Shown here: positions 9,211 to 61,880 of the stretch, one piece after another | Layout of the letters: each line of letters begins with the position of its first letter | How positions within the stretch are numbered: position 1 is the first letter of the stretch | Source of the DNA: Nanobdellota archaeon | Lineage (GTDB): Archaea > Nanobdellota > Nanobdellia > Woesearchaeales > SKGA01 | Length of the DNA: 64,000 nt | Assembly (NCBI GenBank): GCA_051819805.1 | Contig: JBNJHD010000001.1 | Location: 8,962-72,961, forward strand | Direction of reading: 5' to 3' | Notes under the pieces: model-generated | Told to the model about the DNA's origin: nothing | The model's database searches: none | What the model saw: only the letters and a program-made list of their open reading frames with translations | Translations under genes and position numbers: made by a program

Positions 9211-9320
9211 TAGTTGATTATTTTTATTTTTTTCTTTCATAATCACATTCTGTTCTTAATTTTGCATCGCGATTTTGTTCTCAGCAAGTTTTTTATAGCA
9301 GATGTCTTCAGTAAACATAT

Positions 9321-9479: not shown

Positions 9480-9552
9480 TGCGAGTCTTAAGTATGAAGT
9501 AGTAAGATTTATATTGTCTTCATTATGTTTTTTCCAGATTAAGGTGATATTT

Positions 9553-10107: not shown

Positions 10108-10158
10108 TTAGAGTTCGTTATTTCTTTTTTTTTATTGTTATGTATGTTCTACTTTTAT

Positions 10159-10917: not shown

Positions 10918-10983
10918 ACTACTTCATTGGTTTGCTCTCTTAAATATTTTGTGAACTTAGTTTATTCTCACAAACTCTATATT

Positions 10984-11424
10984 TCACTTCAGACTCTTCT
11001 CAAGCCAGATGGCAGAGTGAGAACCCCACTCGTTGATCTTGAAACCGACAATATCAAAACCCAACTTCAAGGTTAGACGAAGCATGTTCTTCCACCTATT
11101 GGATGTTTTCAAGAAAAATACCTCGTACTCTGATTTTTTAGCGTAATCCATCTGTTCCTCAATGATCTGCTGACCCAAACCCTGCTTGCGATAATCAGGA
11201 AGAACACCAAGCATCCAGAAATAGAACTTACCCTTCTCTTCATACCCTATACCATAACCGGCTAATTTCTCATCAACTCTTGCCAGGGTGATATGAGGAT
11301 TCTTGAACAAGGATAACTTCCGCTTGATCTGCTCGGGAGTCTTCGCCTTATCAAAAATGACTTTGTCGAGTTTAACAGTATCTTTCAAATCATCAAATGT
11401 CCCTGTCGAGATTACAGTTGCCAT
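10984..11424 (-). CDS. GNAT family N-acetyltransferase
   Basis: Motif A region ...RKQGLGQQIIEE... (R/Q-x-x-G-x-G/A) in a 146-aa protein. Confidence 0.7.
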   Translation of the reverse strand: MATVISTGTFDDLKDTVKLDKVIFDKAKTPEQIKRKLSLFKNPHITLARVDEKLAGYGIGYEEKGKFYFWMLGVLPDYRKQGLGQQIIEEQMDYAKKSEYEVFFLKTSNRWKNMLRLTLKLGFDIVGFKINEWGSHSAIWLEKSLK

Positions 11425-30162: not shown

Positions 30163-30221
30163 ATATTTTTCCTGACCGATAAGCTTTTTAAAAGCGTAAA
30201 GGTTCTCTCTTTTTCAAAGAC

Positions 30222-30572
30222 GGACCCGTGGCCTAATCTGGATAGGGCAGCAGCCTCCTAAGACAGTGGTCAGGGTGCGGCTGTAGAGCAAGTACAGTTA
30301 ATTTGTCCACTGTTTCGGCGAGAGCTGAAGCTTGGGGGTTCGAAACAGCTGGTTACGCTCAGCTGGCACGCATTAAGGGTTTCGTGCGCGTTGCACACTC
30401 AATCCCTTTGGGTTTATTCCCTTTTAATTGCTGCTTACGCTCTGTTGGCATGCATGTAGGGTTTCGTGCGCGTTGCACACTCAATCCCTTGTTTTTTTCA
30501 TGTCGGCTTTAGTTCAAAGCTGGCTTACTGTGTCAAGCGATGTGACTGCTGACGAAAGTCCCCTCGGGTCCG
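30222..30572 (+). tRNA. Putative tRNA-Arg (anticodon CCU) interrupted by two or three introns, including a ~214-nt insertion in the T-loop; no encoded CCA; followed by a T-run
   Basis: 5' acceptor GGACCCG (30222-28) is perfectly complementary to CGGGTCC (30565-71). D-arm GCCT/AATCTGGATA/GGGC; anticodon stem GCAGC with loop CUCCUA.. T-stem GGGGG + TTCGAA (30334-44) is completed by T + CCCCT (30559-64) only after removing 30345-30558. Exon ttcg / intron cgaa could form the 4-bp core of a BHB-like motif. TTTTTTT follows at 30575. Confidence 0.45.
30376..30490 (+). repeat. Two identical 33-nt direct repeats (AGGGTTTCGTGCGCGTTGCACACTCAATCCCTT) separated by 49 nt, each able to fold as an imperfect hairpin
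   Basis: Exact copies at 30376-30408 and 30458-30490. Ends are inverted (AGGGTTT / AATCCCT) with an inner GTGC..GCAC palindrome. Located inside the putative T-loop intron of the tRNA-Arg locus. Confidence 0.6.
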
Positions 30573-30705
30573 CGTTTTTTTACTTCTTTTGTGTAGTGCG
30601 TATACTTCTTGCTCTTGAAAATTGTCATCCTCTTATCGTCATACTTCGTGAACCAATACTTTTATAAAAGGGTTTAATCCTATCAATTGCAGAGGGTTGA
30701 GTACT

Positions 30706-32499
30706 ATGAACAAAAGGGTGAGTGTAGCACTAGTAATTCTATCATTAGCACTATTATTCACGTTGACATCTGCAGTCGATGCTGCTGAACAACGATCGTT
30801 TGTCATTTCAAATTCAAAAGATTGGAAAGAGATTTATGTCGCTGCAGCATACGCTGGAGTCACTGAAGCTGATTACTTCTTCTTCTTCTCAGATTTGGCG
30901 GATGCTGAGATGAAAACGAAGATGATGACCAAAAACGACATGGTCACTGTATTCGAATCATCGGAACGACCTATTATCAAGAATTATGACTCGCGACTTG
31001 ATGTCAATGGATATGATTTCGTAGCCTCAAACAAATACTCTGATCTCACTGAGTTACAGGAAACAGTCTATGAAATGGTGAATCCTGAAGGTTTCGTTGT
31101 TTTCGGAACAGATTACGGTGTAGAACCTGTTGCGGCATTGCCTTTCCTGATACAAAATAAGTTCACTCCATTCTTTTACACTGAAGACAGTGCAGATTAT
31201 ATACAGAACCAAGCTGAAGAACAACGATCCATCTTTATAGGAAGAATACCTGTGCGTAATTTTGAACTTGATAATAAAGAGACGTTTCTAGGAGGCCCCA
31301 TCCAATCAACTTTTGACGTGACTGAAGAAGTCAATAGAAATATTGCCAGTAGTTGGGGTGTAATGACAAGAATCGACCAGATAGAATTTCAATCGCTTCT
31401 TACCGGAAGGCCGGTATTCCTTCATTTCGGAACGCCGTACATGGAACAACTAGCTCAAATCACTAGAGATAGCGGTATCGAACGGTTTGAAGTCATTGGA
31501 GGAGATATGGTCAGTATTGCACAAGACATCGAATCAGCAACAGGCGAGGATCTCAAATTCATGCTCAAATACGGTCGTAAAGTCACTAACTATGCTCCAA
31601 TGGCAGGAGATTCCATTCTTGATATCGATTCAATAGAGTTACCTCGACCGATTGAGTATCTGAGCATATCCGGAGCGACATATTATCCTGAACTTGACGT
31701 TTTGGCACTGAACATCCACAACCAAGGTAATATTGATGAACTAGTCTATTCGAACATGGAATTCGGCGACGAATCATTCTCTGACGAACAACCGCACCAG
31801 GTGCCAGCACAACAGAATATGACGTTCACCTACACAGTCAATATGTCTGAAGAAACTCCTGAAACAATAATTATCACATCACGATATGGATCTGAGACTC
31901 CTCTCACGATCAATATTGAAGAGAACGGGTCGCAGATCATTGAACAAGATGTTGTTGAAGATCCTTTATTCGAGAATCATAGTCTTCTATTCAATAGTGC
32001 TCGCTTGAATACGGAAAATGGTGACTTAGCTATCTCTATAAAGAATAATGCTTCAAAACAGTTAATATATTATGCAGAACTGGTTATTGATGATGGTGAG
32101 ATCATCAGATCATCAAATATCAATCTCGTGGATTCAGGAGCTGAGGATGAGGTAATTATAGGATTCCCGTACATTCCTAATGACGAATTATTGAACAAGA
32201 CTGTGGAATTGACGCTCCGTTACGGAACAAAAGATACGATACTTACTACATCAGATTCATTTATCATCAAAGCCGATGAACAAACAAGTGATGTTCCTGG
32301 AACTGTAGTAATTGCACTCGCTGTGGTCGCTGTAGTGCTCATACTGCTCTTGTTACTTATCGGCAGGAAAAAGAAGAACTCTTCGGAAAATGATGCTCGG
32401 TCAAAACCTGAAGCATCCTCTAGAAACAAAAAGAAGAGTGCTTCAACGAGGAAGAAATCCTCTTCCTCTTCAAGATCAAAACGGACGAAGAAAAAATGA
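30706..32499 (+). CDS. Secreted surface protein with C-terminal TM anchor and K/S-rich cytoplasmic tail
   Basis: Sec-type signal peptide (VALVILSLALLFTLTSAVDA|AEQ), C-terminal TM (VVIALAVVAVVLILLLLLIG) then RKKKNSSEND...SSSSRSKRTKKK. SD-like AGAGGGTTGAG precedes the ATG at 30706 (track start is TTG at 30697). Confidence 0.5.
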   Translation: MNKRVSVALVILSLALLFTLTSAVDAAEQRSFVISNSKDWKEIYVAAAYAGVTEADYFFFFSDLADAEMKTKMMTKNDMVTVFESSERPIIKNYDSRLDVNGYDFVASNKYSDLTELQETVYEMVNPEGFVVFGTDYGVEPVAALPFLIQNKFTPFFYTEDSADYIQNQAEEQRSIFIGRIPVRNFELDNKETFLGGPIQSTFDVTEEVNRNIASSWGVMTRIDQIEFQSLLTGRPVFLHFGTPYMEQLAQITRDSGIERFEVIGGDMVSIAQDIESATGEDLKFMLKYGRKVTNYAPMAGDSILDIDSIELPRPIEYLSISGATYYPELDVLALNIHNQGNIDELVYSNMEFGDESFSDEQPHQVPAQQNMTFTYTVNMSEETPETIIITSRYGSETPLTINIEENGSQIIEQDVVEDPLFENHSLLFNSARLNTENGDLAISIKNNASKQLIYYAELVIDDGEIIRSSNINLVDSGAEDEVIIGFPYIPNDELLNKTVELTLRYGTKDTILTTSDSFIIKADEQTSDVPGTVVIALAVVAVVLILLLLLIGRKKKNSSENDARSKPEASSRNKKKSASTRKKSSSSSRSKRTKKK

Positions 32500-32618
32500 C
32501 GGATAACGGGTTGCTATCTGTCTCCTTCGTATTGTTACTACTACTGTCGTAAACACTAGGTTTATAAATAAAACCTTCTCTGGTTTACATACAGGGTACT
32601 TTCGGAAACAGGGGTGAG

Positions 32619-35600
32619 TTGGTCATACTTAAGCGTACTTTAATATTTTTTATGCTGCTTAGTGTGGTGTTGTCGGGCGTAGCACTGACAATAGCTGCAT
32701 CTAGCGGGCAATCTATCAATCTATCTAGTTCTGGGACTCCTGTTTCTATCCGAATACCATCCCTGACTTCTGAAACCTTAGAACTCACCCTCTCAGGCAA
32801 TGAGTATAGTCCTATCGAGACGAAACGAGACCCTATACGCTACAACGATCCGGTCGGATGGCAGCTCATCCTTTCTAACGGCACGACCAACAAGAGTATT
32901 GACTATACCACACCCGAAATAACTGTCGATGAAAGCATTGATACGACTCCCTCGTCATGGCTTGCGACAATCACATTCTCAACACAAGCATCAACGACGT
33001 ACACTGACCTGCCATACACATTTGAAGCACCGACAACAAGAGATATAGCAACGTCCTCGCTTCTCAGTAAACTGTCAGCAGCAAATGACAGTGTAAGTTT
33101 TATACTGCCACAACTTCATTCTGAACGGACTATCATTATCACAGGAGCACTTGGTAACGGGACGTCACGAACTGCAGTGGCGGAAACTCCTGAAGGGATT
33201 TACACGATTGAGTTGAGCAGCGGTATTCCTGAGGAATTCACTGTGCAAAACGCTTCAATTTCAACCAAGCTTGAAGAACTCAGGACTAACCAGACTCTCA
33301 CTATGCATTTACACGCTCCTGTGGCACTTGATTCAGCAACGACATTCTATATCTGGAACCAAAAACAAAGCGAAAAAATTCCTCTCAGCTATTCTCTCGA
33401 ACATAATGGCACGCTGGCAATCATCAATATACCTCCTTCTCTTCTTGAAATGTTGAGCTTGCCAGAAACATCACAATACTTCTACGGGAATCTCGAACTG
33501 GCAATGGATAATGCTCGGTATTTCACATTCACCACGGATAAAGAATTCTACTTCCCTGAAGAGACAGTGACATTTAACATCCTCCCTGAGAATACGTCAT
33601 CGTTCATCTACGTGACGACTCCTTCTGGAGAACCTGAACTTATTACTGGAACAGAATACACTCCGGAAGTTCCAGGAACCTACACTGTTGATGCCTCGCT
33701 CTATCATGAGAATATCAGTGAAGAACAGGCTCTCACATTTGATGTTCTCAATGCCACTCTTGCAAATCAGACTGAGGATGAGATCGTTCTGGAATTCAAC
33801 AATACCTATGAAGGACAGCAAAAGACTATCAGAGCATCAGTCAAGATTCCTGAACATGCTCGAGACGTTGCCCAACAACTCAATACACTAGAGCAAGAAA
33901 TCAACGTCCTGAAGAAACAAGACGAATTATCAGAGTCATTGAATGCTGTTCAACAGGGATTCAGTGCAATGAGCGCATCAACGAATATGATACAGCAATC
34001 AAATGCTCCTGCTTCTGTGAAAGAACAGATTCTTCAGAAACGCCGGCTTCTCACGCAGAAACGAGAAGAGCTCAAAGAACGAGTCAACAATAGAGTAAAT
34101 GCGACAGTCAATCTCGCTAATTCATCCTCAGACAGGGTCAAATCAATCGCATTCAACAACCTGGAAATCAAGAACGACACGATCGATCTCGGATTCAAAG
34201 AAGATGTCGATATCAACGAAGCGACTTCAAGTTTTGCAGTCGATCCAGAACGAATTAATTTCACGAACGCAACTATCACAGTCAATGCGACAGGAAATTA
34301 TCTATACAAGTGTCGCGATTGGAATTTCAGCGGTCAATACTGTCCGGAACCAGTAACTACCTGTACTGGAGTCAAAGGTGTAAATAGGAGTTGCGAGACC
34401 TATGGCGGTTGGAAGAAACTCAAGAAAGTCACACCAGGACAACTCTACACGATTTCCGTAGTACCGAAAGACCCTGCGTATGCAGAGTATGATGCAACGT
34501 ACACTGCACCTTACTGTAACGTGAGCGAGTCACCATGTATCGCTAACTCGAGTGTGCTCATGTCTTCAGGCACATATACTAACCAAAATGAGCCTAACGA
34601 GCCCAATACAGTTGATGCTTGTACTGATGGTGGAAGCGGTACGTATGAGTCAGATGAGTATGTCCAGAATGTCACGATCACCAGTCTCAATAACAGCAAT
34701 TTCCAGACTGGAGACACAGTTAACGTGTCAGCATGGGTTCATATTTGGGGGACTGCTGATGATGTCGTCAACTTCGTTTACGCAAACGATGCATCAAGCC
34801 CGAGTTGGACAGTCAAGGCAGGAGATGTTCCTCTCGATGGAACCGGCTACCAGCAAGTGAGCACGACATTCACGCTTGATGAAGTGGTGGGAGACCATGT
34901 CATACGAGTGCTCAACGAGTATCAAGGAGCGGCAACGACTACCTGTGCAAGCAACGGATACCATGATAACGATGATGTCGTCTTCAAGGTTGATAGGAAA
35001 TTCAATGTAAGTAATGCCCAATATAATTCGACATTCGGAGCACCATACTGTAGTTACGGGGCAAGTCCATGTATTGCGTATTCAGAACTTCTCAAATCAG
35101 CAGGAACATACACTAATCAGGAAGAGCCGAACTATCCGAATACAATAGATGCATGTAGTGATGGTCATAGCGGTACGTATGAAGGTGATGAGTACGTTCA
35201 GAATATAACAATTGAAAGTCTGAATCATAGTACGCTGCAAGCGGGAGACACTATCAATATCACCGCATGGGTGAATGTTTATGATGCTGCAACTGATGTA
35301 GTGAATTTTGTTTACACGAATGATGCATCATCTCCTTCATGGACGGTGGTTGATGGAGATGTTCCTCTCGGAGGAACCGGCTACCAGCAAGTGAGCACGA
35401 CATTCACGCTTGATGAAGTGGTCGGAGATCATGTCATACGAGTGCTTAACGAGTACAACGGTGCAGCAACAACTACCTGTGCAAGCAACGGGTATCACGA
35501 TAACGATGATGTCGTCTTCAAAGTACAACAGGCTGATACAGCTATCAACTGGCTAAATGAAACTTGGAAGTGGAGAATGCCATTCAACATTTCCAATACA

Positions 35601-38600
35601 GCCGGAGATCTTACTGGTTTCCAAGTTCAAGTCAATCTCACGCCTAGCAACTTTGACTTTGAAAAAGCGAACGCAAACCTGAGCGATCTGCGATTCACGT
35701 ATTACGAACCTGATGCACAGACTGAAATCGAGATCCCTTACTATATAGAATCAAATACAAGTCTCGATTATAGCACAGACGCATACACTGCCAATATATG
35801 GATAAGAACTGATTTGGTCAATGATACGAACACCACACACTATGTCTACTATGGAAATCCTGATGCTCAAAGCGAATCGAATGCAAGCGCGGTCTTTGAT
35901 TATTACAATGGTTTCGAAAGCGAAGTGGGATTCACAGATGGTGATCTCACCCTGACCAGAGATACCAATTCATCAAAGAAAGGAGATTTTGGTGTCACAG
36001 GAAATGGCGGTGGCACTCATACTCAGGCATATCGGAGTGGTGTGAATAGTGGTAGGGATGTGATCTTTGAAGTCTGGACGAAGTCATATGATGATGGGGG
36101 AAGCCAGGATACATCCCTTGCCTCTATCGCATTCGGTCATCCTAATGCAGGCGCAACTACTGATGGTTATCAAGCATTCATCGATGAGAGAGACAACGGT
36201 GAAGCATTCGGTCTCAGAGAAAATTATGGTGTTGGAACTCTTACTGCTTCGGCAACACCATTGACATATTATAATACTTGGTACTTCCAACAAGCGATAT
36301 GGAAATCAAATGGAGAGCTCGTCCACAATCTATATGATGAAGATAAGAATCTTCTTGGTTCAATAACAGCGACAGACAACACCTATACGGATGGAGAGTA
36401 CGGTCTCGGTTTGTGGCAGGCAGCACACTTCGATGAGTACAGGGTGCGAAAATACGCAAATCCTACTCCTGGAATAAGCGGTACTGGTGACGGAGAATTC
36501 GTCGGAGTCATAAACGTCACTTTCGACGAACCTACTGATGGTGATAGTACAGATACGTACAACAGCTTCACGATGAACGGTACTGTCGAATGCATCCGAG
36601 GAAATGATTGCGGTAATATCAGTGTCTGGTACCAATACTACACAACAAGCACGCCAACACAATCAATCACCGAGACCACGACAGCAGACTTCGCAAGCTA
36701 TGAGAGTGAATACAACACGTCACAATCAAACGGCAAACTCTATCTGGAGAACAAGAACTCGGAAACCAGCTGGTGGGATGGTCTCTGGCTGTACAGGCAG
36801 AACTTCACAGTCTACAATCCGAACAGCGATACAATCACTGATTATCAAATCAATCTCCAACTGAACAGTTCAAACACGCAAAGCAACTTCCCATGGAGCA
36901 ACTCAGCAGAATTGCGATTCGTCGTGTATGACAATGATACTGGTGACACCACTCTGGTGGATCACTGGGTTGAATCATGGGATCAAAGCGGTCAGAACGC
37001 AAGCGTCTGGGTTGAGATTCCTGAGTTTGAAGCGCTCAATGATACGATACTGCACATATACTATGGGAACAGCGGAGCGGCAGATATCTCCAACGCTTCA
37101 GCAACAATGCTCTATCATGATGATTTTGAGGATGGAAACGATGATGGGTGGACAGAAGAGACAGGGTCGTGGAGTGTCACAAGCGGTGAATACCAACAGA
37201 CGACAGATATCACTGACTATCTCATCTCATCAGCGGGAAGCAGTTCGTGGACAGATTATACGGTAGAAGCTGATATCAACGTGACAAACGATGGATCGAC
37301 ACGACCATTCGCCGGTATCGTGACACGATTCCAAAATACTGATAATTATTATGTGGCTGTGCTTGATGACTCTACAAACCTTGCAATAAGAAATAGGGTC
37401 GGAGGGGCGTGGGATGTTCAGAACGACTACACGATAAGTTTCGATACTCTTGATTGGACGCATTTACGAGTCGATATCTATGATGATGGAGGACAAGATA
37501 CAGTCAAAGCCAGTGTCAACGGCTATACGCATGCACATAATTTTACCAATTTCAACTCTGGAAAAATTGGTCTTTTCACGCACGGCCACCAACCATACTT
37601 CGATAACGTCATCGTAAGGACATTCGCAGAACAAGAGCCGGTCATCACAGCAGGAACTGAAACAACTTTGGAGAGAGCATCACCGGGAGAATATCTCTCG
37701 GACGTGTTTGATACAGGATCATACGATGCTCAGTTCAAAGGAATAACCTGGAATGAAGAAACAGATGCTGACACGACACTCAACATATACACGAGAACAT
37801 CTCCTGATAATGTATCGTGGTCGAACTGGTTCTTAGAAATATCAGGAAATACTATCAGTTCACCAAAGGATAACAGATACATCCAATACAAGGCTGAGAT
37901 GGGCACGACCGATACTCAAAAGAGTCCCTTGCTTGATGATATCACTATCAATTACACTATTTTAAGCAAGTCATGGAAAAATATTTCTTTATCAGGTCAG
38001 ACCTTCACAACATCAAATCCTTATGAATGTGCTGTTCTCAGTGATAATTGCACACCATCATTAACTGTTCTACCAAAAGAGTTTGGTAATTATTCGCTCA
38101 GGTTCTTGGTTGATAATAATGATTATGATATTATCGATACAACAACTGAACCTCATAATATTACAGTATATCTTCAACCATCCTTTTCCTCGTTCACAGC
38201 AACAGTGAATCCGGTATCTATTAACGATACTACTGAACTCTCAGCAGTACTAGTTGATGGATCTTCCCAATCATTATCAGGATATAATATTACTTTCTAT
38301 GATGAGACACATAATGGTACTGACAGGTATGAAATAGGATCGACACTGACTGATGCTTCAGGAGTGGCAACTATTGATTATCAAGTTCCTATTGATGGAC
38401 AGCTCTCGATTCACACGCTCAACGCAAGCTATGCTGGCGACCTATCTGAGTTCAAGAAAGGAATTGAAGTTACTCGTTCTCTTACAGTCTCTTCAACACC
38501 TAAGTTCAATGCTATTTCAGTCAATCCTGAAAATATCGGTTTCGGAAAGAACCTGACAATCGCAGCCAACATCACAGATGCTGTCGGTCTTTCAACAGTC

Positions 38601-41600
38601 AAGATCAACATCACGGACGAATCAGGAACGACAACACAGTATGACATGGCATTATCAGGACAGTTGTACGAATATACATTCCCTGAAAAATGGGAGACTG
38701 AAGAATATGAGTTCATGATTATAGCAACGAATAATGATGGTATAAGATCAATTTCAGAAACTAGATCATTTGCAGTAGATGTCACTGCAGAATTCGATAT
38801 TGTTACTGAGAAGGATGAATATAAGAATGAAGAACTTGTCAATCTTAAACTAGTGAAAGATGGTTGGTATTATCTTGGATGGACACACCGGACTCCAATC
38901 ACTGTTGTAAGCCAGAACAAACTGAAAGACTTCCAGATATCGTTTGAACTAGATGAAGAGAACTTTCAATTCAATCAGGCTAATGCTGATGGAAGCGATA
39001 TACGGGTAACATATCTCAATAAAACTAGTGGAAACGAGGAAACAATTCCTCATTGGATCGACTCATTCAATAGAACGTCAGAAGAAGCAACTATCTGGGT
39101 AAAAACACCTCTTCTGGATGATGCTATTGATAATGTATTCTACATTTATTACGGAAACGATACTGCGACAACGACAAGCAACGGTACAGATACATTTCTC
39201 TACTTCGAAGACTTCGAAGGAACATTTACCTGGACTGACTATGGTTCAGGAAGCGTTGTGAAAGACTCGACAAGGTCATATGACAACACTTACTCCGGAC
39301 ATAAGATCAACAACAACGATCCTAACGGTGCATACGATGATGTTGGTTTCACGTTCGGACGTGATGTCATCATGGAATTCTGGGTGAATAGGAACGCAGG
39401 ATTTACTGGTGGAAACCAAGATAGGGTTGGTTTCATCGATAATAGCGGTAACGGTTATGGATGGGTATTTATCCATAGTGGTTCTGAAATCGCAGCAGAC
39501 AGGCGTGATTCATATACTGGAAGTAATCTTCCAGGAACAACTGCTACTGATTATACTGACACATGGGTCTTCGGTCGGTTCGTGGTCAAATCGAACGGTG
39601 TCGTAGAAGCATACCGATATGTGAATGACACGTTAGCAGGAAGTATGGCAATCACAGATAATACATACAATAGTTTCACACGAGCATATATCTTTGGTGG
39701 AAACGATTACTGGGTGGATGATATCAGGATCAGGAATTATGATGCAGGAGTCATCGAAAAACAATACAAGATGACAGAACAAGGAATCCATGGACTCCTC
39801 AACAAAGGAGATACTGAATTTGAAGGACAACTAAGAATGCTCGTCCAGGAATGGACAGGATCAAGCTGGCAGAATATCATGCCACCTGTTGTTGAAGATG
39901 AATGGACGAATGTCAGCGGATATGAAGCAATCGAACTTTCAGGTCTTTGGGATGCAAAAGGTGCTTGGAACACTTCAAACCGTGATTCAGGAACATACAG
40001 AGTATATGCTATTATGGAAGATCCTTCCTATAATACGCTATACACTACAGATGGTCAACCGCTTATCGGAACGTACAATTTCACGATCATACAATCATCA
40101 GTAGAGCTGGAAAACCTCACTCACGAGAATGAACATGAAGACACGATCAACGAATACGAAACAGGAGATGTCATCGACTGGATCAACGCGACTGTCAAAG
40201 CGTATGACAACACAGCGTACAATGCCTATGTTAACCTCTCACTCTATGATGATTCTAAACAACCTCTTCCATGGGGGCCTCAAGAAGAGCTCAAGAACTG
40301 TGGAACACTGACTGAAGGAAGCACATGCGAACGACAGTGGACGAATTCCAGCAACGGTTACATCATTCCTCAAGATGCAATTGCAGGAACCTACACCTTC
40401 TACTGGAATGTCAAGTCAGATTCCGATAATGGACCTGTCAACATCAACGACTCAACATCATTCACCATCCACAGTGTCCCATCAACAGTCTCAAGTGCTC
40501 TTGAGAAGATCCGTGTAGAAAAACCTAACTCTACACTCTACAACTTCACGTTCACGAACCCTTGGAGCGAATCGCTCACAAGTACGACTGCGACAATCAA
40601 TTGTCCGACGATGAGCGGCTTTGAGTGCGATTCACTCGTGTCAGGAACAAGAACTGAAAATATAGGTACGGTCACTTCTTCAGACACAGTTACGGTACAG
40701 TTCAATGTCTCGGCTAACGAAAGCGTACCATCCGACAACTATAACATCTCAATAGAACTCAATTACACTAACCCTGGTGCTGAAGATAAAAGCTGGTCAG
40801 GACTCGGTGAGCAGATTGTGGAAGTGAGAATCGCAGGTATACTCGAGATTACAGACTTTTACCATCCTAATAATATTACACGAGGTATCACTTATGACTT
40901 TGATTCCCATATGAACAATTCAGCAGATAATACTGCCAATAATGCATGGTTGAACTACACCTTGCCTGCATCATGGCAACTCATCTCAGGAACCTTAAGC
41001 ACAACTTTCGGTAGTCTTGCACCTGGTGAGATCGGTTGGAACAATATCTCTGCACAACCAGAAGCAGATGCACCTCTTGGACCACGTCAAGTGCGTCTCG
41101 ATTCCGGAGCCGATGATGGTAGGTATGATTTCAAGGTATATTCGGTTGATGTGTACGCTCAAACAAATATCAATGCTTCAAAAGATCGTTATATCGTCAA
41201 CAGAGGAGAGAATGTTAATCTTTCAGCAACATTATATTATGACAACTCATCAACTATCAACGGTCAAGAAATCGAATTCGTCGACACGCGAACAGCGACA
41301 ACAATCGGAACTGCAACAACTAACACGAGTGGAGTAGCGACCATCCCTTATTATATCAACTCAACATCTCCGCTTGGAACTCACACAATAAATGTGACTT
41401 TTGATGGTAGCGTGACTGACTATCTCCGTCCAAGCTATAACACCACAGATATCAATATTCATGAAGTACCTGAAATATCGAATATAGTGATTTCTCCAAA
41501 TGTGACCAGCTATGGACAGGACATATGGATTAACGCGACGATAACAGATACTGATGATGTCGATAGCGCATGGTATGAGATCACATTCCCTAACGGCACT

Positions 41601-50888: not shown

Positions 50889-50981
50889 TCAGATAAAAAC
50901 AAGCTCATCAAGAACAGTTAGCTTTATAAATGAACTTCGCTACTTTATAAATGCGGCGTTGTGTGAACAAGAGGTGTTGTT

Positions 50982-52130
50982 GTGAAACAAGCAAGAGCGA
51001 AAAATAGAGCGGGAAAGACGGCTCTGTCAGCAACCATGACGATGGTGATGCTTCTAGTCATCGTGCTATCCTTAGCAGCGCCTTTCGCACTGACACAAAA
51101 CGAGACCAACTCTTCACAGGTTGTCGTTGAAGAACTTGGTGAAGAAGAAAATACTACTGAAGTCACTGATTCTGACTTGAATGAATCTACAAACAATGAG
51201 AACGGGACAGCCGATGTTGACGTTGCAAATGAAACCTCGAACGAGACTGATACCGAAACTACTGATGATAATCAGACAGTGAATGATTCACAAAAGAATG
51301 AAACTATCCTCTTTGGTCAAGATTCTGAATTTTCAAACTCTACTAATATCACCAACGAATCAGTCGTTGATGATAATGATACATCGCTAACTCCTGGTTC
51401 AAACGAATACGGACAGTACTATGAACTTGGCTCTGATAACCAGATGGCAGAAAACGAATCGATCACAACAGATACTGATGAGAATGATTCAATAAAGCTT
51501 GTTTCTGGAGAAGTCATTACTGATACTGATATTACGACGAATTCATCATCATATTATATAGAACTTGATGAGACTGCAGAACCACTAGAACTCAATGTTT
51601 CGGTAGATGGGACTGAACAAGGAGACGTGCAAATTGATGTGCCTGTGAAATTCACACAGGAATTGTCTGTCACGAATGTCGCTCCTTCAGAAGTCGAACT
51701 GACGATCAACCTCTGGAAACTCAGAGGCGTGGATGATGCGCTTCTCAACGACATGAACTCTCTCGAGATTACATCGAATGGAACTCTCATTTCAGAACAG
51801 TCCTTGTTTCCATTACGATTGGAAGCGAATGAATCCAAAAATCTGATGATCACTTATACGCTACCGGAAGTCACTATGACAATGGAATGCACTGAGAAAA
51901 CTATTGAAGATGTACTACCTGAAGACGCGACGATAACAGAAGCGGAACTCAATATCTCGTCAGTGCTGACCAAAGAATGCTCCGTACAGGTAGCGCATGA
52001 TGGTTCTGCTGTGTATGAGGATGTGACTATTCCTCTGGATCAGGTTGATGTGAAAGACTTGATTACAGTGATTGATGCTTCGACAGGTGACGAACTGCCT
52101 ATTATCAATGGAACTATAATGATGGATTGA
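50982..52130 (+). CDS. Secreted, highly acidic S/T/N/D/E-rich protein with N-terminal signal/anchor
   Basis: N-terminal basic region plus hydrophobic segment (TMTMVMLLVIVLSLAAPFA) then low-complexity acidic sequence with many sequons. Stop overlaps the next gene. Confidence 0.5.
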   Translation: MKQARAKNRAGKTALSATMTMVMLLVIVLSLAAPFALTQNETNSSQVVVEELGEEENTTEVTDSDLNESTNNENGTADVDVANETSNETDTETTDDNQTVNDSQKNETILFGQDSEFSNSTNITNESVVDDNDTSLTPGSNEYGQYYELGSDNQMAENESITTDTDENDSIKLVSGEVITDTDITTNSSSYYIELDETAEPLELNVSVDGTEQGDVQIDVPVKFTQELSVTNVAPSEVELTINLWKLRGVDDALLNDMNSLEITSNGTLISEQSLFPLRLEANESKNLMITYTLPEVTMTMECTEKTIEDVLPEDATITEAELNISSVLTKECSVQVAHDGSAVYEDVTIPLDQVDVKDLITVIDASTGDELPIINGTIMMD

Positions 52131-52138
52131 GATTGAAT

Positions 52139-53788
52139 ATGAAACATAAAGAACGAATTCGTGCATTGGCGTTGGTTCTTGTAGCTGTAGCGCTATTATT
52201 CACTATCTCTCAATTTTCCCAAGCTGACTCGGTTGATGTTCTCGCAGGCCGATCTTACAAAGTAAGTCTGGAAGCGAATGCTCCAAGCGGACGATGGGCT
52301 GGAGTCACGATAAGTCATAATGAAGTAGAACTTGATGAGAGTAACTTGCCCTTCGGGTCCATACGATTCGATACTCCTGAAATTGAAGCTCGTCAATTCC
52401 CAGGTAAAAATCTCAATGATGATATTCATTATTACGCAGCGATGTTCGATGAGAGTTTCAACCTGACACGAGTCCATAATGTCACTGTAGAAGATCTCGA
52501 TCCGAACGAAATGTTCGATCAAACGGACTTTCCTGATTTTTATCCAGATTATCTTTCTTATGGCGATAATCCCAAACGAACATTTGAAGGGAACACGACT
52601 GACATATTACTTGGTGGAGAGAATTTTACAGCATTTGTCATGACACTAGCTGAAGATGTCACCTACTATCTGCTCCGCTATGATGAAGGAAGCAACAAAC
52701 GACCATTGTTTCTCACGCATCTTGATTACCAAACCTGTTACAAGGGTCAGGAATGTGTTGGTGAATTCATGCTTCCTGTTTCACCGAACGAATATAATTT
52801 TTATGCATTGAACAAGTATACTTCTTATGATTACAGGATATGGGTTGATGGAGTGGAGACTAACTCCTTCAGCCAGACAGCTCTGCCATATAATCTCACT
52901 GTGGAAGTATCAAATCTTTACACCAGTCAACTGGAACCAGGAGTCGATGTTTTAGTGGGAGAGCACAATGGTCAAAATATCTTCATCCCCTATAGGATGT
53001 CAGGGTATATCAGCGACTCCTACACTGTAGGAACGGCAGATGCTGATGCAATGGAAACGTTCCTAGTTGCACCGACAGTCTATCCATCAGTAGATAATTA
53101 CACTATATTCGTAGCAGTCCTCAAAGAAGGTAATCTCTTGAGTGAAGAAGAGCTCTATGTCAATTCGAAAGACACGCTTGTACGGTTCTCAAAACCGCTC
53201 TCGCCATCAACACTATATGATAATGCAAAAGCATCAGTCAATGCAATGAGCCAGATAGCGAACTCGTTGTTCAAATGGTCAAGCCAATTCCTCTCATCAA
53301 AACGTTTCAAGATCAGCTATGATATATCCTCGGATTCATTCACTACATACGATTATGAAATCAGTAGCTATCTACCAAGTCCTATCTCGCTCAAGACAGG
53401 GGCTCCGAATGTCATTGAGACTTCTGTAACTGATGGTGGAACACCACAGTCAGATTATATGATCCGGATTTCAGAAAAGGATGGATATCTCATCATGAAT
53501 CCGTATACAGAATCATCTCCGTTGTCTGAAAAGCAGAGGTATCATCGTCAAAGCGTTCCTGTATCACAGGAATTCATTATCACGCCAACAAGCCTTGGAA
53601 AGATTGATTCGAATGTGACCTTCGAAGTCCTTGATTACAGAGGAGAAATTGTAGCTGAGAAGCAATTCAATGTCACTTCAAGTCTGGTTTATACAGGAGG
53701 CGTATATTTTAACAATGACCAGCTGAAAACGATTGTAAATGCGATGAATCAGGTCTTGAGTTCGTTGTATTATTCGTTAAATTTTTAA
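52139..53788 (+). CDS. Secreted protein of unknown function (signal peptide, sequon-rich)
   Basis: Signal peptide ALALVLVAVALLFTISQFSQA|DS; no recognisable catalytic motif. Confidence 0.5.
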   Translation: MKHKERIRALALVLVAVALLFTISQFSQADSVDVLAGRSYKVSLEANAPSGRWAGVTISHNEVELDESNLPFGSIRFDTPEIEARQFPGKNLNDDIHYYAAMFDESFNLTRVHNVTVEDLDPNEMFDQTDFPDFYPDYLSYGDNPKRTFEGNTTDILLGGENFTAFVMTLAEDVTYYLLRYDEGSNKRPLFLTHLDYQTCYKGQECVGEFMLPVSPNEYNFYALNKYTSYDYRIWVDGVETNSFSQTALPYNLTVEVSNLYTSQLEPGVDVLVGEHNGQNIFIPYRMSGYISDSYTVGTADADAMETFLVAPTVYPSVDNYTIFVAVLKEGNLLSEEELYVNSKDTLVRFSKPLSPSTLYDNAKASVNAMSQIANSLFKWSSQFLSSKRFKISYDISSDSFTTYDYEISSYLPSPISLKTGAPNVIETSVTDGGTPQSDYMIRISEKDGYLIMNPYTESSPLSEKQRYHRQSVPVSQEFIITPTSLGKIDSNVTFEVLDYRGEIVAEKQFNVTSSLVYTGGVYFNNDQLKTIVNAMNQVLSSLYYSLNF

Positions 53789-53831
53789 ACGCTTATGGCT
53801 GGACAATAGGTAAAAGAGTGTGAGTGCAAAC

Positions 53832-55625
53832 ATGAAAGCAAGGGAAATCACGAAAACAATCTTCATTCTAGTAATCATCACGCTCTTTACAGCATCAGTA
53901 ACTGCAGAATCAGGCAGTTTCATATCACAGAATCCGATGAACCCTTCCGAATATGTTCAAGCATCATCACTTTATTTCACCGGAACAAGTTCCGATCCTG
54001 GAAACCTGTATCTGGATGCGTATGGTGCTAACGAGGACATCGGAATACAACTATGCGATGTCGGACAACGATACGTAGGCGGCTTCTACGCGATGAATAT
54101 AGGAGGAGCATGGGAATCCTCGCTTGTGACGTATTCCTCGAGCAGTGAAGCACTCGCTTACACGTCAGAAGATACGGAGAGCGGCTGTTACGGCACAGTG
54201 CCTGGTTTCGTCACGATATCACCGTCTCACCTGACAACATCTGATCCGGATGTCTACAAGGCAGCTTTGCCGGGAAATCTCTGGATAGGGTATGATACCG
54301 GAGCGAACCCTGGAACTGTGAGTGATTTTGTCTTTTCAGGAGGGGATGCGAAACTACGAGGGGATTATAACGTCCAACGTTCCTTCGATCAATCAACACG
54401 ACAGATTGCTGCTCAAACTCCGCAGATACAATTCAGGACATCATCAACATCATTCTCGAAACCAGCTTCGGATTCATCATTCGGCATATCCTCTTCCAGA
54501 CAGATGGTTATGGGAGTCTGCGATGACGATTACGGACAATTCTGTTCAGACGGACAGTTATTCAGTTCTCCGACGTTCCCTGCAACTTTCGATACAGGAC
54601 TCGGAGAGAGCCAGGTGAACGACCAGCAGATACACACGAAGTATGTTGTCATGAACGGAATCGGAAAAGAGATGTGCATCGGAGCGAATCTCAAGTCCCA
54701 GATTTCTTCAGTAACTCCTGATCCTGTCTATTATAGCCAGAATCTAGAGATACAATTCGCTATCAACAATCCACGTGACACTCCGTATGAGACCTATGGC
54801 GGTAACGTCGATGTCACGACACCGTTTGACGTGCGGTTGCGGATCTATGAAGCAGCAGACCCCTCGAATGTCGTCTACACGGATACATTCACAGTGTCAA
54901 GCTCTGTGCTTTCAGAAGGGTCCTTACCATATATCATTAACTGGCCTGCCTTTGAGCATAGTGGCATCTACACGGTAGAGATTGATGCTGATATCGGTGG
55001 AGATATCACTGAGTGTAATGAAGGGGATAATATCGCTACAATGAATTTTGAGCTACTCCCGATTACTCTTCCTGAAATCAACATTGATGGTCTGGAACTG
55101 GATTCATTCCCTGTGCCTAATGTGCCGTATAATGTCACGTTCCACATGGAAAACTCTGATGGTGATGTGCTACGAAACGCTAATGTCATCATGACTGAAA
55201 AGAATGGTCTCAACCTGGCAGCACCCACACAGACTTTTGAAGCAGACATTGATGATATGGGCAATACTGAAAATCGAGGAGTGGTTTCAACGTCACAAGC
55301 TTATTTCATGACAGATTATTATGGTAATGTGAGTTTTACGTTCATACCAACATATAACAAACTCTATTTCGATGGGTCAGGAGTCAATCTCAGTGAATAT
55401 GTAGGTAATTACTCGCTCTCATTCACTGGAAACCAATCCGATGGAGAGAATTTCAAGTTCGTCCTCAATGGTTCGTTAGAGTCCGATTATCCTCTGACTA
55501 TCGACAATAAGAATTATACAGGACCATACAATCAAAAAGAGCTTCCTAACAAGAATATGGTCTCTCAAGTACTTGACTATGCATACCATGCTTATACTAA
55601 CTTTATCGAAACACTAGTCGGCTAA
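53832..55625 (+). CDS. Secreted protein with CARDB-like segment
   Basis: Signal peptide (IFILVIITLFTASVTA|ESG) and a CARDB-like stretch (VEIDADIGGDITECNEGDNIATMNFEL). Confidence 0.5.
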   Translation: MKAREITKTIFILVIITLFTASVTAESGSFISQNPMNPSEYVQASSLYFTGTSSDPGNLYLDAYGANEDIGIQLCDVGQRYVGGFYAMNIGGAWESSLVTYSSSSEALAYTSEDTESGCYGTVPGFVTISPSHLTTSDPDVYKAALPGNLWIGYDTGANPGTVSDFVFSGGDAKLRGDYNVQRSFDQSTRQIAAQTPQIQFRTSSTSFSKPASDSSFGISSSRQMVMGVCDDDYGQFCSDGQLFSSPTFPATFDTGLGESQVNDQQIHTKYVVMNGIGKEMCIGANLKSQISSVTPDPVYYSQNLEIQFAINNPRDTPYETYGGNVDVTTPFDVRLRIYEAADPSNVVYTDTFTVSSSVLSEGSLPYIINWPAFEHSGIYTVEIDADIGGDITECNEGDNIATMNFELLPITLPEINIDGLELDSFPVPNVPYNVTFHMENSDGDVLRNANVIMTEKNGLNLAAPTQTFEADIDDMGNTENRGVVSTSQAYFMTDYYGNVSFTFIPTYNKLYFDGSGVNLSEYVGNYSLSFTGNQSDGENFKFVLNGSLESDYPLTIDNKNYTGPYNQKELPNKNMVSQVLDYAYHAYTNFIETLVG

Positions 55626-55661
55626 ATGCATTTTCATCACATTCAGTAGGGGTTTTATGGG

Positions 55662-58250
55662 GTGGCAGTGATTAAAAGTATGAAACAACGACAATACCTA
55701 TCACTAACGATTTCTCTAGTCGTAGCTCTCATTCTCTTGACAGCTTTCGTTTCAGCCGTAATCCCTGAACCTGAACTCACTTACCTTAATGGAAGTTCTG
55801 TGCCTGTATTCAATTTCGACAGGAAAGGATATGATCTTGATGGCCAGCCTTACGGAAGCAACTCTTATATGGATCACAGCATAACAAATCCCGATGTAGA
55901 ATTATCGCTCTGCCACCAGAATCTCTCTGTCGGTGACGGGGTTGATCTGGTCTATTATTCAGAGAATAAATCCCTTATTGCAAGTGTTCTCAATTATAAG
56001 CCTCTCATCACGAATGTCACGACACACGCTGATGGGAATGGTACATATAACTGCACTGTTATCAATATTGATCTCTCTTCAACGAACGCTCTGTATCCTG
56101 GAAAAATCGCTCCTGTGCTCATTGACAATCACACTGCTAATACGCCTACAGAGTATGAATTCACACAAAACTCCACAGAACTCTTTGAACCGCTTGATCC
56201 GATGTTCAATGGTTCATATAAAATAGGGGTTCGTGTTGAAGGACCTCCAAAGACATATTATCTGTTTACCGAATATATTTACGATGAGAACAAGAAATCC
56301 ATCAATTCATCTGCGCAGAAACTAGTCACGAGCATTGTTGATTCCAGTCGTATTTCTGTAGCTGAAGCAATACTCAATCCTTCAGACCTGTTGGAATACC
56401 AAGATACATTTCAGGGTGGAGAGGAAGTCATTGTCAACGGACTCTCGTCACTTGAGATCAAGATGTATGATCCCTGCACTCCAATCAATGAATCAGGATA
56501 TTATATCATGAACGAGAGTATTGGTAATAGTTCTGGGCAGAATCTTAATGATACTTGCTTGGAACTCAATAATATCTCAAATGTCGTTCTCAATTTCGGA
56601 GAGGAATTCGTCACAGGTGATGATGATTCAATAGCAGGAAGCAAGAAAAATGATACTTGTGCTTTCACGATACGGAATTCTCACAATATAACCTTTGAAA
56701 GTTTCAAAACATACCAATTCTACTATGGCATTTGTGTGGAGAACAGTTCCATCAACATTTTCGGAACGCAATCATCACACAACATACATGGAGCGAAAAT
56801 AACTCATAAGAGTAAGGTGCAATTCATCGATACTCGATTCTCGAATGATGATTCAGAAATACTGGTAGAGGATGATTCTAAATTATCTTTATCGCATGCA
56901 CGATTCGAACTTGAGAACAGCGACCCACTCAATGTAACTCATCTTGATTCTGAAGCGAGTAACGTGCGGATACGGACAGTCAATCCACGACCGGTGATTC
57001 CGAATACTACAACACCTGACGGCAGAGAGCTCAAGGATATCGGTCAATACATCCGTTATGACAATCTCAGCTCAAACAATTCATTCGCACAATTAACATT
57101 TCACTTCCGGGAATATGCACAAAGTAATCTCTCAGAAAAAGTAGCTACAGACAATATCTCTATCTACAAATACAATGGGACTATGAAATCAGAAGACCCT
57201 GACTACGTCATGTCTGCTAACGAATCAGATGGTTGGATCAATGGAAATTGGTCACAAATCTATACGCTGGTCTATCCTGCAGAACAACTCATTTTAAGTC
57301 CGAACATGAGTAGTTTTTCAGTTTATGCACCACTCGGTTTCGTCACTAACAACACTAACCCTGAGCCAGTACCTGAGCCGACACCAGAGCCAACTCCTGA
57401 CCCTGTTGCGGGAAGCGATTCTGGAGGTGGAGGGACGCCTTCAAGAAACGAATTTGAAGATGAATCAGTTTTAGTCTATCCTGAACCACCTAATTTCGAG
57501 CTTGAGATACCTGATAATGTGACTCTGATGCAAGGAGAAGCAGGAGATATAAGTTTTAATATCAGCAATAAAGGACGAGCAGATTATGAAGATGTGAAAG
57601 TAGGTCCTGTACTACCCAATGGATGGGAAGGAACAAACCACACATTCTCCATGGTCGAAGCTTATTCGAATATGTCAGCAACATTCAGCATGGCATCATA
57701 TGAAAAAGCGTTACCTGGACGATACTGGGTACCTATCAAAGTCTATGTTCCAAGTGAAAACGGAACGACCGATGTCGTTACAGAATTATTGGCTGTCCAT
57801 GTCACTCCACGAAAAGACCTGCGACGACTGAAAGTGGTGGAATATCCGCCTGAAGTGGTCGTTAAACCAAATTCGCGACTGGACATATCGTTCCTTGCGA
57901 AGAATATTGGTGATTTCAACCTCTATAATATCACGATCGAGCATGAACCTGAAGAGTGTATCGAAAGAATCGAAGGACAACAGAATATCAGTGTCGGGCG
58001 GGAAAAGGATCTCACATATACCTTCTATTTCGGAGATCGGAAAGAATGTGATGCGAACCTCAAGTTCTACTCTGAAGAAGAGCTGGTAGGGTTTGTACCA
58101 GTATCGTTCAAGATCACGCCTAGAGGAATCGGAGAGTTCTATCTTTCAACAAAAGATACTTTCGTGCTGCTCGTTGTTATCGCATGGACGATACTGACAA
58201 TAATGATCATCTCAAGATGGTGGAAGAGAAGGAAATATCACACGAGCTAA
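55662..58250 (+). CDS. Large secreted protein with right-handed beta-helix (NosD/pectate-lyase-like) repeats, Pro/Thr linker and C-terminal TM anchor
   Basis: Signal peptide. Parallel beta-helix-like repeats (NISNVVLNFGEEF...NSHNITFESF...NSSINIFGTQSSHNIHGAKITH...). PEPVPEPTPEPTPDPV linker. C-terminal TM VLLVVIAWTILTIMIIS plus RWWKRRKYHTS. Confidence 0.55.
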   Translation: MAVIKSMKQRQYLSLTISLVVALILLTAFVSAVIPEPELTYLNGSSVPVFNFDRKGYDLDGQPYGSNSYMDHSITNPDVELSLCHQNLSVGDGVDLVYYSENKSLIASVLNYKPLITNVTTHADGNGTYNCTVINIDLSSTNALYPGKIAPVLIDNHTANTPTEYEFTQNSTELFEPLDPMFNGSYKIGVRVEGPPKTYYLFTEYIYDENKKSINSSAQKLVTSIVDSSRISVAEAILNPSDLLEYQDTFQGGEEVIVNGLSSLEIKMYDPCTPINESGYYIMNESIGNSSGQNLNDTCLELNNISNVVLNFGEEFVTGDDDSIAGSKKNDTCAFTIRNSHNITFESFKTYQFYYGICVENSSINIFGTQSSHNIHGAKITHKSKVQFIDTRFSNDDSEILVEDDSKLSLSHARFELENSDPLNVTHLDSEASNVRIRTVNPRPVIPNTTTPDGRELKDIGQYIRYDNLSSNNSFAQLTFHFREYAQSNLSEKVATDNISIYKYNGTMKSEDPDYVMSANESDGWINGNWSQIYTLVYPAEQLILSPNMSSFSVYAPLGFVTNNTNPEPVPEPTPEPTPDPVAGSDSGGGGTPSRNEFEDESVLVYPEPPNFELEIPDNVTLMQGEAGDISFNISNKGRADYEDVKVGPVLPNGWEGTNHTFSMVEAYSNMSATFSMASYEKALPGRYWVPIKVYVPSENGTTDVVTELLAVHVTPRKDLRRLKVVEYPPEVVVKPNSRLDISFLAKNIGDFNLYNITIEHEPEECIERIEGQQNISVGREKDLTYTFYFGDRKECDANLKFYSEEELVGFVPVSFKITPRGIGEFYLSTKDTFVLLVVIAWTILTIMIISRWWKRRKYHTS

Positions 58251-58281
58251 AGGCTCGATTCATATGAGAAGTTGATGAACT

Positions 58282-58686
58282 ATGGCTGCAAAGAAAAACG
58301 ATAAGATGTTCTCGTCATTCTTCGACGAATCAGGACAATCTCCTGAGCAAGCTAGCGAAAGCCATACTAAAAGGAAAAAAGGACGGAAAAAGAAAAAGGA
58401 CAAGGACACTCAAGAACAACACTCTACCTTTTTTGATGATATGCCTCAAGAGATGGATGATGATCTTTCAGGATCATTCTATGACACGCCGGAATCAAAG
58501 AGTGAAGAGGATTTCCAAGAGGATATGTATGAGCATAAGCCTCATAGGAAAGCAGCTAAGGATCATATGAATTCAATACTCCATCTGTTCGGTTTCACAT
58601 GGTGGGAGTTTCTCATCGTCCTCTGTGAAGTTGCTCTTATCGTCTTGACAATACTTTATTTCATGGGACTATTCACTCCTTTCTGA
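58282..58686 (+). CDS. Small tail-anchored membrane protein with disordered charged N-terminus
   Basis: 134 aa; K/E/D-rich N-terminal two-thirds; single C-terminal TM (WWEFLIVLCEVALIVLTILYFMGLF). Confidence 0.4.
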   Translation: MAAKKNDKMFSSFFDESGQSPEQASESHTKRKKGRKKKKDKDTQEQHSTFFDDMPQEMDDDLSGSFYDTPESKSEEDFQEDMYEHKPHRKAAKDHMNSILHLFGFTWWEFLIVLCEVALIVLTILYFMGLFTPF

Positions 58687-59761: not shown

Positions 59762-59805
59762 TACTATACATTCATTACTAAAGGCAAAAAATAAGAGGTG
59801 GTCAT

Positions 59806-61782: not shown

Positions 61783-61880
61783 ACCACTGTGGAGAAGTAG
61801 CACAGCTTTAAAAATGAATACTTCTCAGGAATTGAAATAAGAGAGTGTTATGATATAATGATCAATCTAATTATTGGGGT

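Follow-up and report, generated by a model that had tools for sequence, protein, structure and literature searches.

What kind of locus is formed by seven consecutive, co-directional open reading frames (ORFs), here called g1 to g7, that fill positions 30697-58686 of a 64,000-nucleotide stretch of DNA from a Nanobdellota archaeon (GenBank assembly GCA_051819805.1, contig JBNJHD010000001.1)? An earlier, sequence-only reading of this stretch, which we refer to as the window, had proposed a dedicated surface module and, at the same time, accessory DNA acquired at a tRNA hotspot. The question is of interest beyond this organism. DPANN archaea account for much of the known diversity of archaea, and a life in attachment to other cells is generally assumed for them; since their genomes usually measure about 1 Mb, roughly 28 kb represents a large investment. 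The g4 product is 100% identical to a protein of a metagenome-assembled genome listed at NCBI as 'Nanobdellota archaeon', and all homologs of g4 derive from metagenome-assembled genomes of Woesearchaeota, Nanoarchaeota or Nanobdellota, and the organism is thus a DPANN archaeon of the Woesearchaeota type. For Woesearchaeota we know of no culture and of no identified attachment or envelope protein. With moderate confidence, we propose that g1 to g7 are a lineage-specific, vertically inherited operon set of such archaea, which most likely specifies one multi-subunit cell-surface complex.

Conservation of the module across relatives

Related loci were obtained from a genome-collection scan with a g4 family profile (15 loci) and from contig look-ups (two loci), and the module was present in all 17 (designated by L numbers below). 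Among the 16 loci that extend far enough, g4 is followed by g5 in all but L006. The order g5-g6 was seen in 15 of 15 loci, with a small tail-anchored ORF resembling g7 next in line in at least 11. Upstream of these genes, nine loci encode a g2-like giant, and homologs of g1 were found near the module in L005, L011, L012 and L017, at varying positions and with 21-50% identity. Proteins of these loci share 32-64% identity with those of the window, and the flanking genes differ from locus to locus. The highest conservation was found for g5 (43-64% identity), followed by g4 (32-62%), g6 (26-58%) and g1 (21-48%). Gene order that persists across such divergence points to a functional unit and not to unrelated envelope genes. 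Thus, the recurrence of g4-g5-g6-g7, usually with g2, g1 and g3 alongside, supports the earlier proposal of a dedicated, co-inherited surface module over a scatter of surface genes.

A profile search with g5 against 1.84 billion cluster representatives extended this picture and yielded roughly 45 full-length representatives (as read from the listed ranges), down to an E-value of about 1e-23, besides many unrelated multi-CARDB giants that match the CARDB part alone. In L018, a distant relative of g5 (157 bits) is located between a 2471-amino acid (aa) giant with DUF2341 and NosD/beta-helix domains and a protein of 686 aa with a match to g6 in its N-terminal domain. The association of the giant with g5 and g6 is consequently old. 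In L018, the giant and the g5-like protein finish in similar helices (...IKSWLGG and ...YKWLGA).

Secretion, anchoring and sequon content

The earlier reading counted six consecutive genes for secreted or anchored proteins. Six products do carry Sec-type signals, two of them with C-terminal anchors, and one further product is tail-anchored, but the block comprises seven genes. Each of g1 to g6 begins with a basic N-terminus and a hydrophobic core, followed by an AxA-like site; by inspection, the cleavage sites in the block are VDA/AE, TIA/AS, SQA/DS, VTA/ES and VSA/VI. In g1 and g6, the signal is accompanied by a C-terminal transmembrane (TM) segment with a basic tail, a topology that for g6 (Sec signal, single C-terminal TM anchor) is kept in 15 homologs. 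The g7 protein has no signal and carries its hydrophobic segment at the C-terminus. Its N-terminus, charged and of low complexity, is predicted to be cytoplasmic; its TM segment is conserved, with a WWEF motif and a nearly invariant Glu (at least 90% of sequences).

N-glycosylation sequons, which serve as a proxy only for glycosylation, are not distributed evenly, and the claim that all proteins of the block are rich in them applies to g2 (223 observed vs. 111 expected), g3 (22 vs. 6.7) and g6 (36 vs. 10.9), but not to g1, g4 and g5, which are at expectation, or to g7, which has none. The pattern recurs in the relatives: all 15 g6 homologs are enriched 2.8-4.0-fold (g6 overall 3.3-fold) and the giants 2.3-3.0-fold, and the median observed/expected ratios are 1.17 for g4 (42 homologs) and 1.13 for g5 (47 homologs).

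Domains, folds and paralogy of the smaller subunits

CARDB (PF07705) is present in g2 and g5, a NEW3/CARDB-like domain in g6, and DUF2341, which is lectin-like, occurs within the block only in g2. Of the CARDB-like, lectin-like and beta-helix-like parts that the earlier reading took to be shared, profiles thus confirm the first as shared. For the beta-helix of g6, no Beta_helix, NosD or PbH1 Pfam match was obtained in g6 or 14 homologs (E <= 0.01) and no PDB sequence match, but Asn, Ile and Gly recur in the family consensus with a periodicity that is typical of beta-helices. No significant Pfam or NCBIfam match was found for g1, g3, g4 and g7, and g5 and g6 match through CARDB/NEW3 alone. Single-sequence and family-profile searches of g1, g3, g4, g6 and g7 against Pfam, NCBIfam and PDB delivered, besides CARDB/NEW3, only spurious low-complexity or TM matches, and g1 has no Pfam or PDB relative. 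Conservation of g3 is confined to its C-terminal ~200 aa, the N-terminal half being variable.

AlphaFold2 models of the two secreted core subunits are of high confidence. That of g4 (predicted local distance difference test, pLDDT, 89) consists of beta-sandwiches and long helices at aa 361-388 and 531-552, whereas that of g5 (pLDDT 94) combines an N-terminal beta domain rich in Cys with CARDB, a beta-sandwich and, at aa 578-600, a C-terminal helix. Neither model contains an enzyme fold; both show only beta-sandwich/CARDB domains and terminal helices. A relation of g4 to viral or tail-fibre proteins was considered and rejected, as TM-scores did not exceed 0.17 when g4 was compared to viral structures with Foldseek.

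Profile comparison with hhalign shows that g4, g5 and g6 are partly paralogous: g4 aa 232-351 and g5 aa 414-567 share a beta-sandwich (probability 97.5%), and the N-terminal domains of g5 and g6 match each other (probability 85%, E 6e-6). The similarity between g1 and g6 is weak and CARDB-like (probability 43%), and no relation between g3 and the C-terminus of g2 was detected.

The giant protein g2

With five DUF2341 copies (Pfam 149.8 and 78.8 bits vs. a cut-off of 23.4), g2 is a large DUF2341 putative adhesin. Its homologs range from 1436 to 6220 aa and are encoded upstream of g4 in nine relatives. The last ~290 aa are the sole part conserved in all nine (36-61% identity). This C-terminal module starts with CARDB (52-55 bits), and for the domain that follows, Pfam, NCBIfam and PDB searches gave nothing past CARDB and spurious matches. 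A homolog search with the C-terminal 300 aa recovered only 12 short contig-end fragments and is uninformative on the length of the giants. The conserved domain contains a single DxNxDG Ca-loop-like motif; a dockerin-like reading of this loop was not adopted, given that there is one loop only and no cohesin-like match.

The internal repeats of g2 were mapped by chunked self-comparison, as self-BLAST of the whole protein gave the diagonal only. Two 172-aa repeats stand in tandem and a third copy lies about 3000 residues away, which indicates a recent intragenic duplication or transfer. Together with the DUF2341 modules and Ig-like repeats, these copies make g2 a mosaic. The 172-aa repeats also explain why contigs break inside the giant gene, as in L003 and L001, which begin within it.

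Promoters and gene packing

The motif TTTATAAA, a putative TATA box, occurs six times in the window, always in intergenic position, and four of the six copies are found 38-59 nucleotides (nt) upstream of g1, g2 and g3. None is present between g3 and CheA, the next TATA-like motif being located only at 61807. Because TATA boxes stand only before g1, g2 and g3, we infer three promoters, one each for g1, g2 and a g3-g7 transcription unit, the last possibly reading through into cheB-cheA. The g1 promoter motif CAATACTTTTATAAA is identical upstream of g1 in L005.

Tight packing had been taken as a sign of one or two transcription units. The intergenic gaps from g1 to g7 are indeed short (119, 93, -4 or +8, 31, 36 and 31 nt), but CheB follows g7 after only 43 nt and the core genes upstream of the block, which encode leucyl-tRNA synthetase, ribosomal proteins S13 and S4, RpoD, phosphoglycerate kinase, Cdc48, deoxyhypusine synthase and GatD/GatE, are packed equally tightly; three promoters are predicted instead. 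The 52127/52130 overlap between g3 and g4 depends on a TTG start of g4; the NCBI model begins at ATG 52139 (product of 549 aa). Nevertheless, the stop codon of g3 and the start codon of g4 overlap as ATGA in four relatives (L001, L003, L005 and L010).

Table 1. Positions of the genes, putative promoters, repeats and flanking tRNA at the g1-g7 locus (window coordinates; aa, residues of the product)
Feature	Position	Strand	Description
tRNA-Arg(CCU)	30222-30572	+	three putative introns; left boundary, outside the module
tRNA-Arg exon pieces	about 30222-30261, 30280-30288, 30334-30345, 30560-30572	+	
Putative TATA box of g1	30661-30668	+	TTTATAAA; 45 nt upstream of ATG
g1	30706-32499	+	597 aa; Sec-signal, C-terminal TM segment, cytoplasmic tail long and rich in Lys, Ser and Arg; accessory to the module
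Putative TATA box of g2	32561-32568	+	TTTATAAA; 58 nt upstream of start
g2	32619-50888	+	6089 aa secreted giant without anchor; 223 sequons
Tandem 172-aa repeats in g2	34482-35531 (aa 622-793, 800-971)	+	two copies, 76% identical mutually
DUF2341 and Ig-like span of g2	35550-49229	+	five DUF2341 modules and immunoglobulin (Ig)-like repeats; internal repeat map
DUF2341 modules in g2	aa ~978-1100, 1385-1504, 2083-2205, 3077-3190, 5411-5537		
Third 172-aa repeat in g2	44475-44984 (aa 3953-4122)	+	69-76% identical to the first two
Ig-like repeats in g2	aa ~4300-5370		
C-terminal module of g2	50016-50885 (aa 5800-6089)	+	conserved; CARDB, then Asp-rich ~180-aa domain ending GxYGxYDYExRVP
Putative TATA boxes before g3	50923-50951 (at 50923 and 50944)	+	two copies of TTTATAAA
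g3	50982-52130	+	382 aa, secreted, very acidic; 22 sequons
g4	52127-53788	+	553 aa secreted core subunit (549 aa counted from ATG 52139)
g5	53820-55625	+	601 aa secreted core subunit
g6	55662-58250	+	862 aa; Sec-signal, C-terminal TM segment and basic tail, PEPxP linker; 36 sequons
g7	58282-58686	+	134 aa, tail-anchored

A proposed surface complex and the points against it

The following architecture could be envisioned for the proposed complex. Its core would consist of g4, g5, g6 and g7. Of these, g6, with its C-terminal TM segment and predicted heavy N-glycosylation, and the tail-anchored g7 would hold the complex in the membrane, g6 acting as anchor or stalk. Since g4 and g5 are not enriched in sequons and thus presumably poorly glycosylated, they are probably shielded and might form a membrane-proximal scaffold, joined through their long, amphipathic terminal helices. 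Onto this base g2 would dock via its conserved C-terminal CARDB and 180-aa domain, and the remainder of the giant, with its lectin-like DUF2341 modules, Ig-like and 172-aa repeats and putative glycosylation, would project outward as a variable adhesin toward a partner cell or glycan surface. Finally, g1 might be a second anchored accessory and g3 an acidic glycoprotein accessory, translationally coupled to g4. Physical assembly, docking of the subunits and a role in adhesion or host attachment are what we infer from the sequences. Tentatively, and with considerable doubt, one might go further and speculate that DPANN archaea of the Woesearchaeota type use g1-g7 for host contact, in an apparatus that would correspond to the attachment organelle observed by cryo-electron tomography in Nanobdellota. 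A conserved base of g4-g7, embedded in the membrane, would then present a rapidly diversifying, lectin-like g2 that sets the host range.

Several points weigh against one multi-subunit complex. First, L002, L006, L008 and L016 comprise 3-10 kb of upstream sequence and no giant adjoins the core; the core can consequently exist without an adjacent g2. Second, in L006 g4 is followed by a p224-like gene in place of g5. Third, part of the synteny in related small genomes could be due to common descent and not to function. Fourth, to judge from our searches, no fold or sequence match ties a core subunit to a characterised adhesion system. Fifth, a beta-sandwich scaffold with an anchored stalk is also what a surface layer (S-layer) would look like.

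Alternative explanations

The last point leads to the main alternative, an S-layer or envelope-structural locus, which we consider possible, though unlikely. Here, g6 would be a SlaB-like stalk, g4 and g5 would form the lattice or a sub-lattice, and the giant would be an accessory without a specific attachment role. Sec signals, multi-Ig/CARDB beta-sandwiches, a C-terminally anchored glycosylated partner and the lack of enzyme folds are all in line with it, as is the statement that the S-layer proteins of DPANN archaea are yet to be determined and lineage-specific (bioRxiv 10.1101/2023.10.27.564410). The SlaA/SlaB pair of the Sulfolobales, itself lineage-restricted, resembles the module in combining Sec-secreted beta-sandwich proteins with a glycosylated partner that has a single C-terminal TM helix. 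In contrast to that pair, however, the module comprises seven genes, among them a hypervariable giant, and thereby exceeds the known S-layer loci, which have one or two genes; it resembles SlaA/SlaB neither in sequence nor in a specific fold, and the 7ptp match is generic Ig-like. Archaeal lattice proteins are usually heavily glycosylated, whereas g4 and g5 lack sequon enrichment (1.1-1.2-fold) and are unusually well conserved. For S-layer proteins, identities of 40-64% across an order-level radiation are high; above the genus level, such proteins have typically diverged so far that they are no longer recognised (bioRxiv 10.1101/2023.10.27.564410). If the locus nevertheless encodes an S-layer, it would be a first candidate S-layer locus for the group.

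An extracellular complex for substrate capture or polymer binding, cellulosome-like or of the Lactobacillus csc type, that binds or processes environmental polysaccharides appears improbable to us. Surface proteins that bind glycans commonly contain DUF2341, CARDB/NEW3 and Ig-like domains, the L018 giant bears NosD/Beta_helix (pectin-lyase fold) and beta-propeller domains, and the Ca-loop-like DxNxDG motif of the g2 C-terminal domain would suit such a function. However, neither transporter genes nor a catalytic domain are linked to the module, and the searches gave no match to cohesin or dockerin.

That the block is a genomic island, acquired horizontally and inserted by the tRNA gene, is a reading that our results largely refute and to which we assign very little probability. 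Two observations speak for it: the block starts 134 nt after the tRNA-Arg gene, and its tetranucleotide usage correlates with that of the remaining window at 0.55-0.80, compared to 0.92-0.96 elsewhere. The latter shift is probably attributable to the composition of the secreted proteins, which are rich in Asn, Thr, Ser and Asp and poor in Lys and Arg. By other measures the composition is ordinary, with a GC content of 0.41-0.46 and native synonymous codon usage (relative synonymous codon usage r 0.52-0.91 vs. core genes; g2 0.91, g5 0.84, g6 0.85). As the sequence-only reading had noted, no integrase or transposase is encoded; none of the seven ORFs filling the block matches such a family in Pfam or NCBIfam. 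Furthermore, 30200-30700 shares no repeat of at least 13 nt, as expected of an attachment site (att), with the remainder of the window. The claim of acquisition at a tRNA hotspot fails, as module order and content are conserved in relatives with other flanks, and in L005 the tRNA-g1 junction is kept together with the promoter: the large tRNA intron, the 3' exon and the g1 promoter occupy the same place upstream of g1, at a protein identity of about 50%. The tRNA adjacency is hence ancestral and not an integration scar. Taken together, the block was probably inherited vertically. The sequence-only reading had held that a block of ordinary composition, syntenic and invariant across related genomes and without co-expression of its proteins, would be just a collection of unrelated envelope genes; synteny was found, but we do not follow that conclusion, for the reason of conserved order given above.

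That such unrelated envelope genes came to stand in a row by chance, in a compact genome, is hardly credible and is refuted by synteny and paralogy: packing is equally tight outside the block and 8 of 31 other window genes (26%) have an N-terminal hydrophobic segment, but six signal-bearing genes in a row would arise by chance at about 0.26^6, roughly 3e-4, the order is conserved across at least 15 loci, g4, g5 and g6 are partly paralogous, and the ATGA overlap at the g3/g4 junction is kept.

Comparison with known systems

Literature searches for DUF2341, CARDB, Woesearchaeota, Woesearchaeales and DPANN surface clusters retrieved no description of the operon. The module is thus a conserved and so far undescribed seven-gene surface operon, built from known kinds of parts.

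Huge secreted surface proteins of ultrasmall symbionts, the SPEARE proteins of Nanohaloarchaeota, reportedly mediate adhesion to the host. Likewise, Patescibacteria, which are also ultrasmall symbionts with reduced genomes, secrete very large proteins of many domains, the FhaB/DUF2341 giants, with a presumed role in host adhesion; these have DUF2341 in common with g2 (PMC11809585). Unlike both, g2 contains no protease, nuclease or FhaB domains, and it possesses a conserved C-terminal module of CARDB and 180 aa and a fixed link to a four-gene core.

Very large secreted DUF2341 proteins beside smaller secreted proteins are also known from archaeal type IV pilus (Epd-type) loci of Methanococci (arCOG03508; PMC4858521), where the giants were proposed as adhesins (Makarova et al. 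2016, PMC4858521). In contrast to these loci, the module lacks class III prepilin signals, PilB/ArlI, PilC/ArlJ and prepilin peptidase, its signals are of the Sec/signal peptidase I type, and g4-g7 belong to unrelated families. We found no PilB/ArlI ATPase or PilC/ArlJ among the larger window ORFs scanned with Pfam or in the related loci, and inspection of the N-termini, whose sequence is variable across homologs, revealed no class III signals. We therefore agree with the earlier view that the locus is neither a type IV pilus nor an archaellum.

Within the same superphylum, surface proteins of 0.9-1.3 thousand residues with 36-52 sequons, Ig-like folds and C-terminal TM helices were predicted for Nanobdella aerobiophila; the pectin-lyase-like MJ1_0451/0701/0776 and the lectin-like MJ1_0179 were proposed to act in host contact (bioRxiv 10.1101/2023.10.27.564410). 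The g6 protein (862 aa, 36 sequons, C-terminal TM) resembles their class, in a comparison made by description only, and the N. aerobiophila genes were not reported as a conserved operon. For the Nanobdellota strain YN1, an attachment organelle of cone, portal and filament was described whose proteins are stated to be unknown (PMC11420986).

With four families that lack a Pfam or NCBIfam model, two that have high-confidence structure models, and a sharp contrast between conserved base and variable giant, the module represents a concrete candidate marker locus for host-range evolution, for metatranscriptome follow-up, and for labelling by antibodies or in cryo-electron tomography.

The flanking tRNA-Arg(CCU)

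The tRNA gene at the left edge had been described as intron-laden, and this reading is right: the unspliced sequence 30222-30572 was not called as tRNA by ARAGORN or Rfam, every splice variant tried after in silico removal of the three putative introns was called tRNA-Arg(CCU), and the fold of the pre-tRNA retains acceptor, D and T stems (z = -3.5). The largest putative intron (30346-30559, ~214 nt) is located in or after the T-loop and carries a direct repeat of ~55 nt (30349-30405 and 30430-30490). Across the tRNA region, the window and L005 (positions 1-190) align with 79% identity, compared to only ~50% for the neighbouring proteins, and by eye the part comprising intron and 3' exon seems to be more conserved than that. 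An intron hairpin, GTCGGCTT...AAGCYGGC, varies between the window and L005, its pairing being apparently kept in both (by eye). This conservation, together with the maintained pairing, suggests that the ~214-nt intron is a functional RNA; it has no Rfam match. A second intron-containing tRNA is present at 3057-3178 (+), with a 51-nt intron in the anticodon loop; it is recognised by Rfam (39.7 bits) and missed by ARAGORN.

Other observations on the window and the related loci

Downstream of the block, a chemotaxis operon encoding CheB, CheA and a methyl-accepting chemotaxis protein extends over 58730-63887. Its genes may be co-transcribed with g3-g7; in none of the relatives examined do they flank the module.

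In the relatives, other neighbours recur beside the module, each of them in eight loci (noted for L001, L002, L003, L004, L007, L008, L014 and L017). These are a triad of MoxR AAA+ ATPase, DUF58 and VWA proteins, often after the module (e.g., L001 16390-21496), a TM protein of ~142 aa, and one or two (tandem) copies of a secreted protein of ~224 aa without Pfam match. None of the three is present in the window. Six module-carrying loci (L008, L009, L011, L012, L015 and L016) come from GTDB-representative third-party annotation assemblies labelled 'uncultured Methanosarcinales archaeon'. Their proteins and gene order match Woesearchaeota loci, and by this comparison the labels look wrong. In L016 (4358-5955), two ORFs of 316 and 216 aa together make up the g5 homolog, a split that may reflect a frameshift, a pseudogene or an assembly error.

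The lowest GC content of the window is found at 8000-11000 (0.33-0.36 vs. 0.41-0.47 elsewhere), a stronger GC outlier than the g1-g7 block. This stretch encodes two proteins whose lipobox-like signals have Cys at the end (8515-9210, SurA_N-like, and 9514-10107) and, on the minus strand, a DUF1295 membrane protein. Finally, the gene at 16307-18265 (+) encodes a 652-aa protein with a Sec-type signal, only the C-terminal (S16) domain of Lon protease and 12 sequons (2.9-fold the expectation), and its product looks like an extracellular or membrane Lon_C-domain protein rather than a cytoplasmic Lon.

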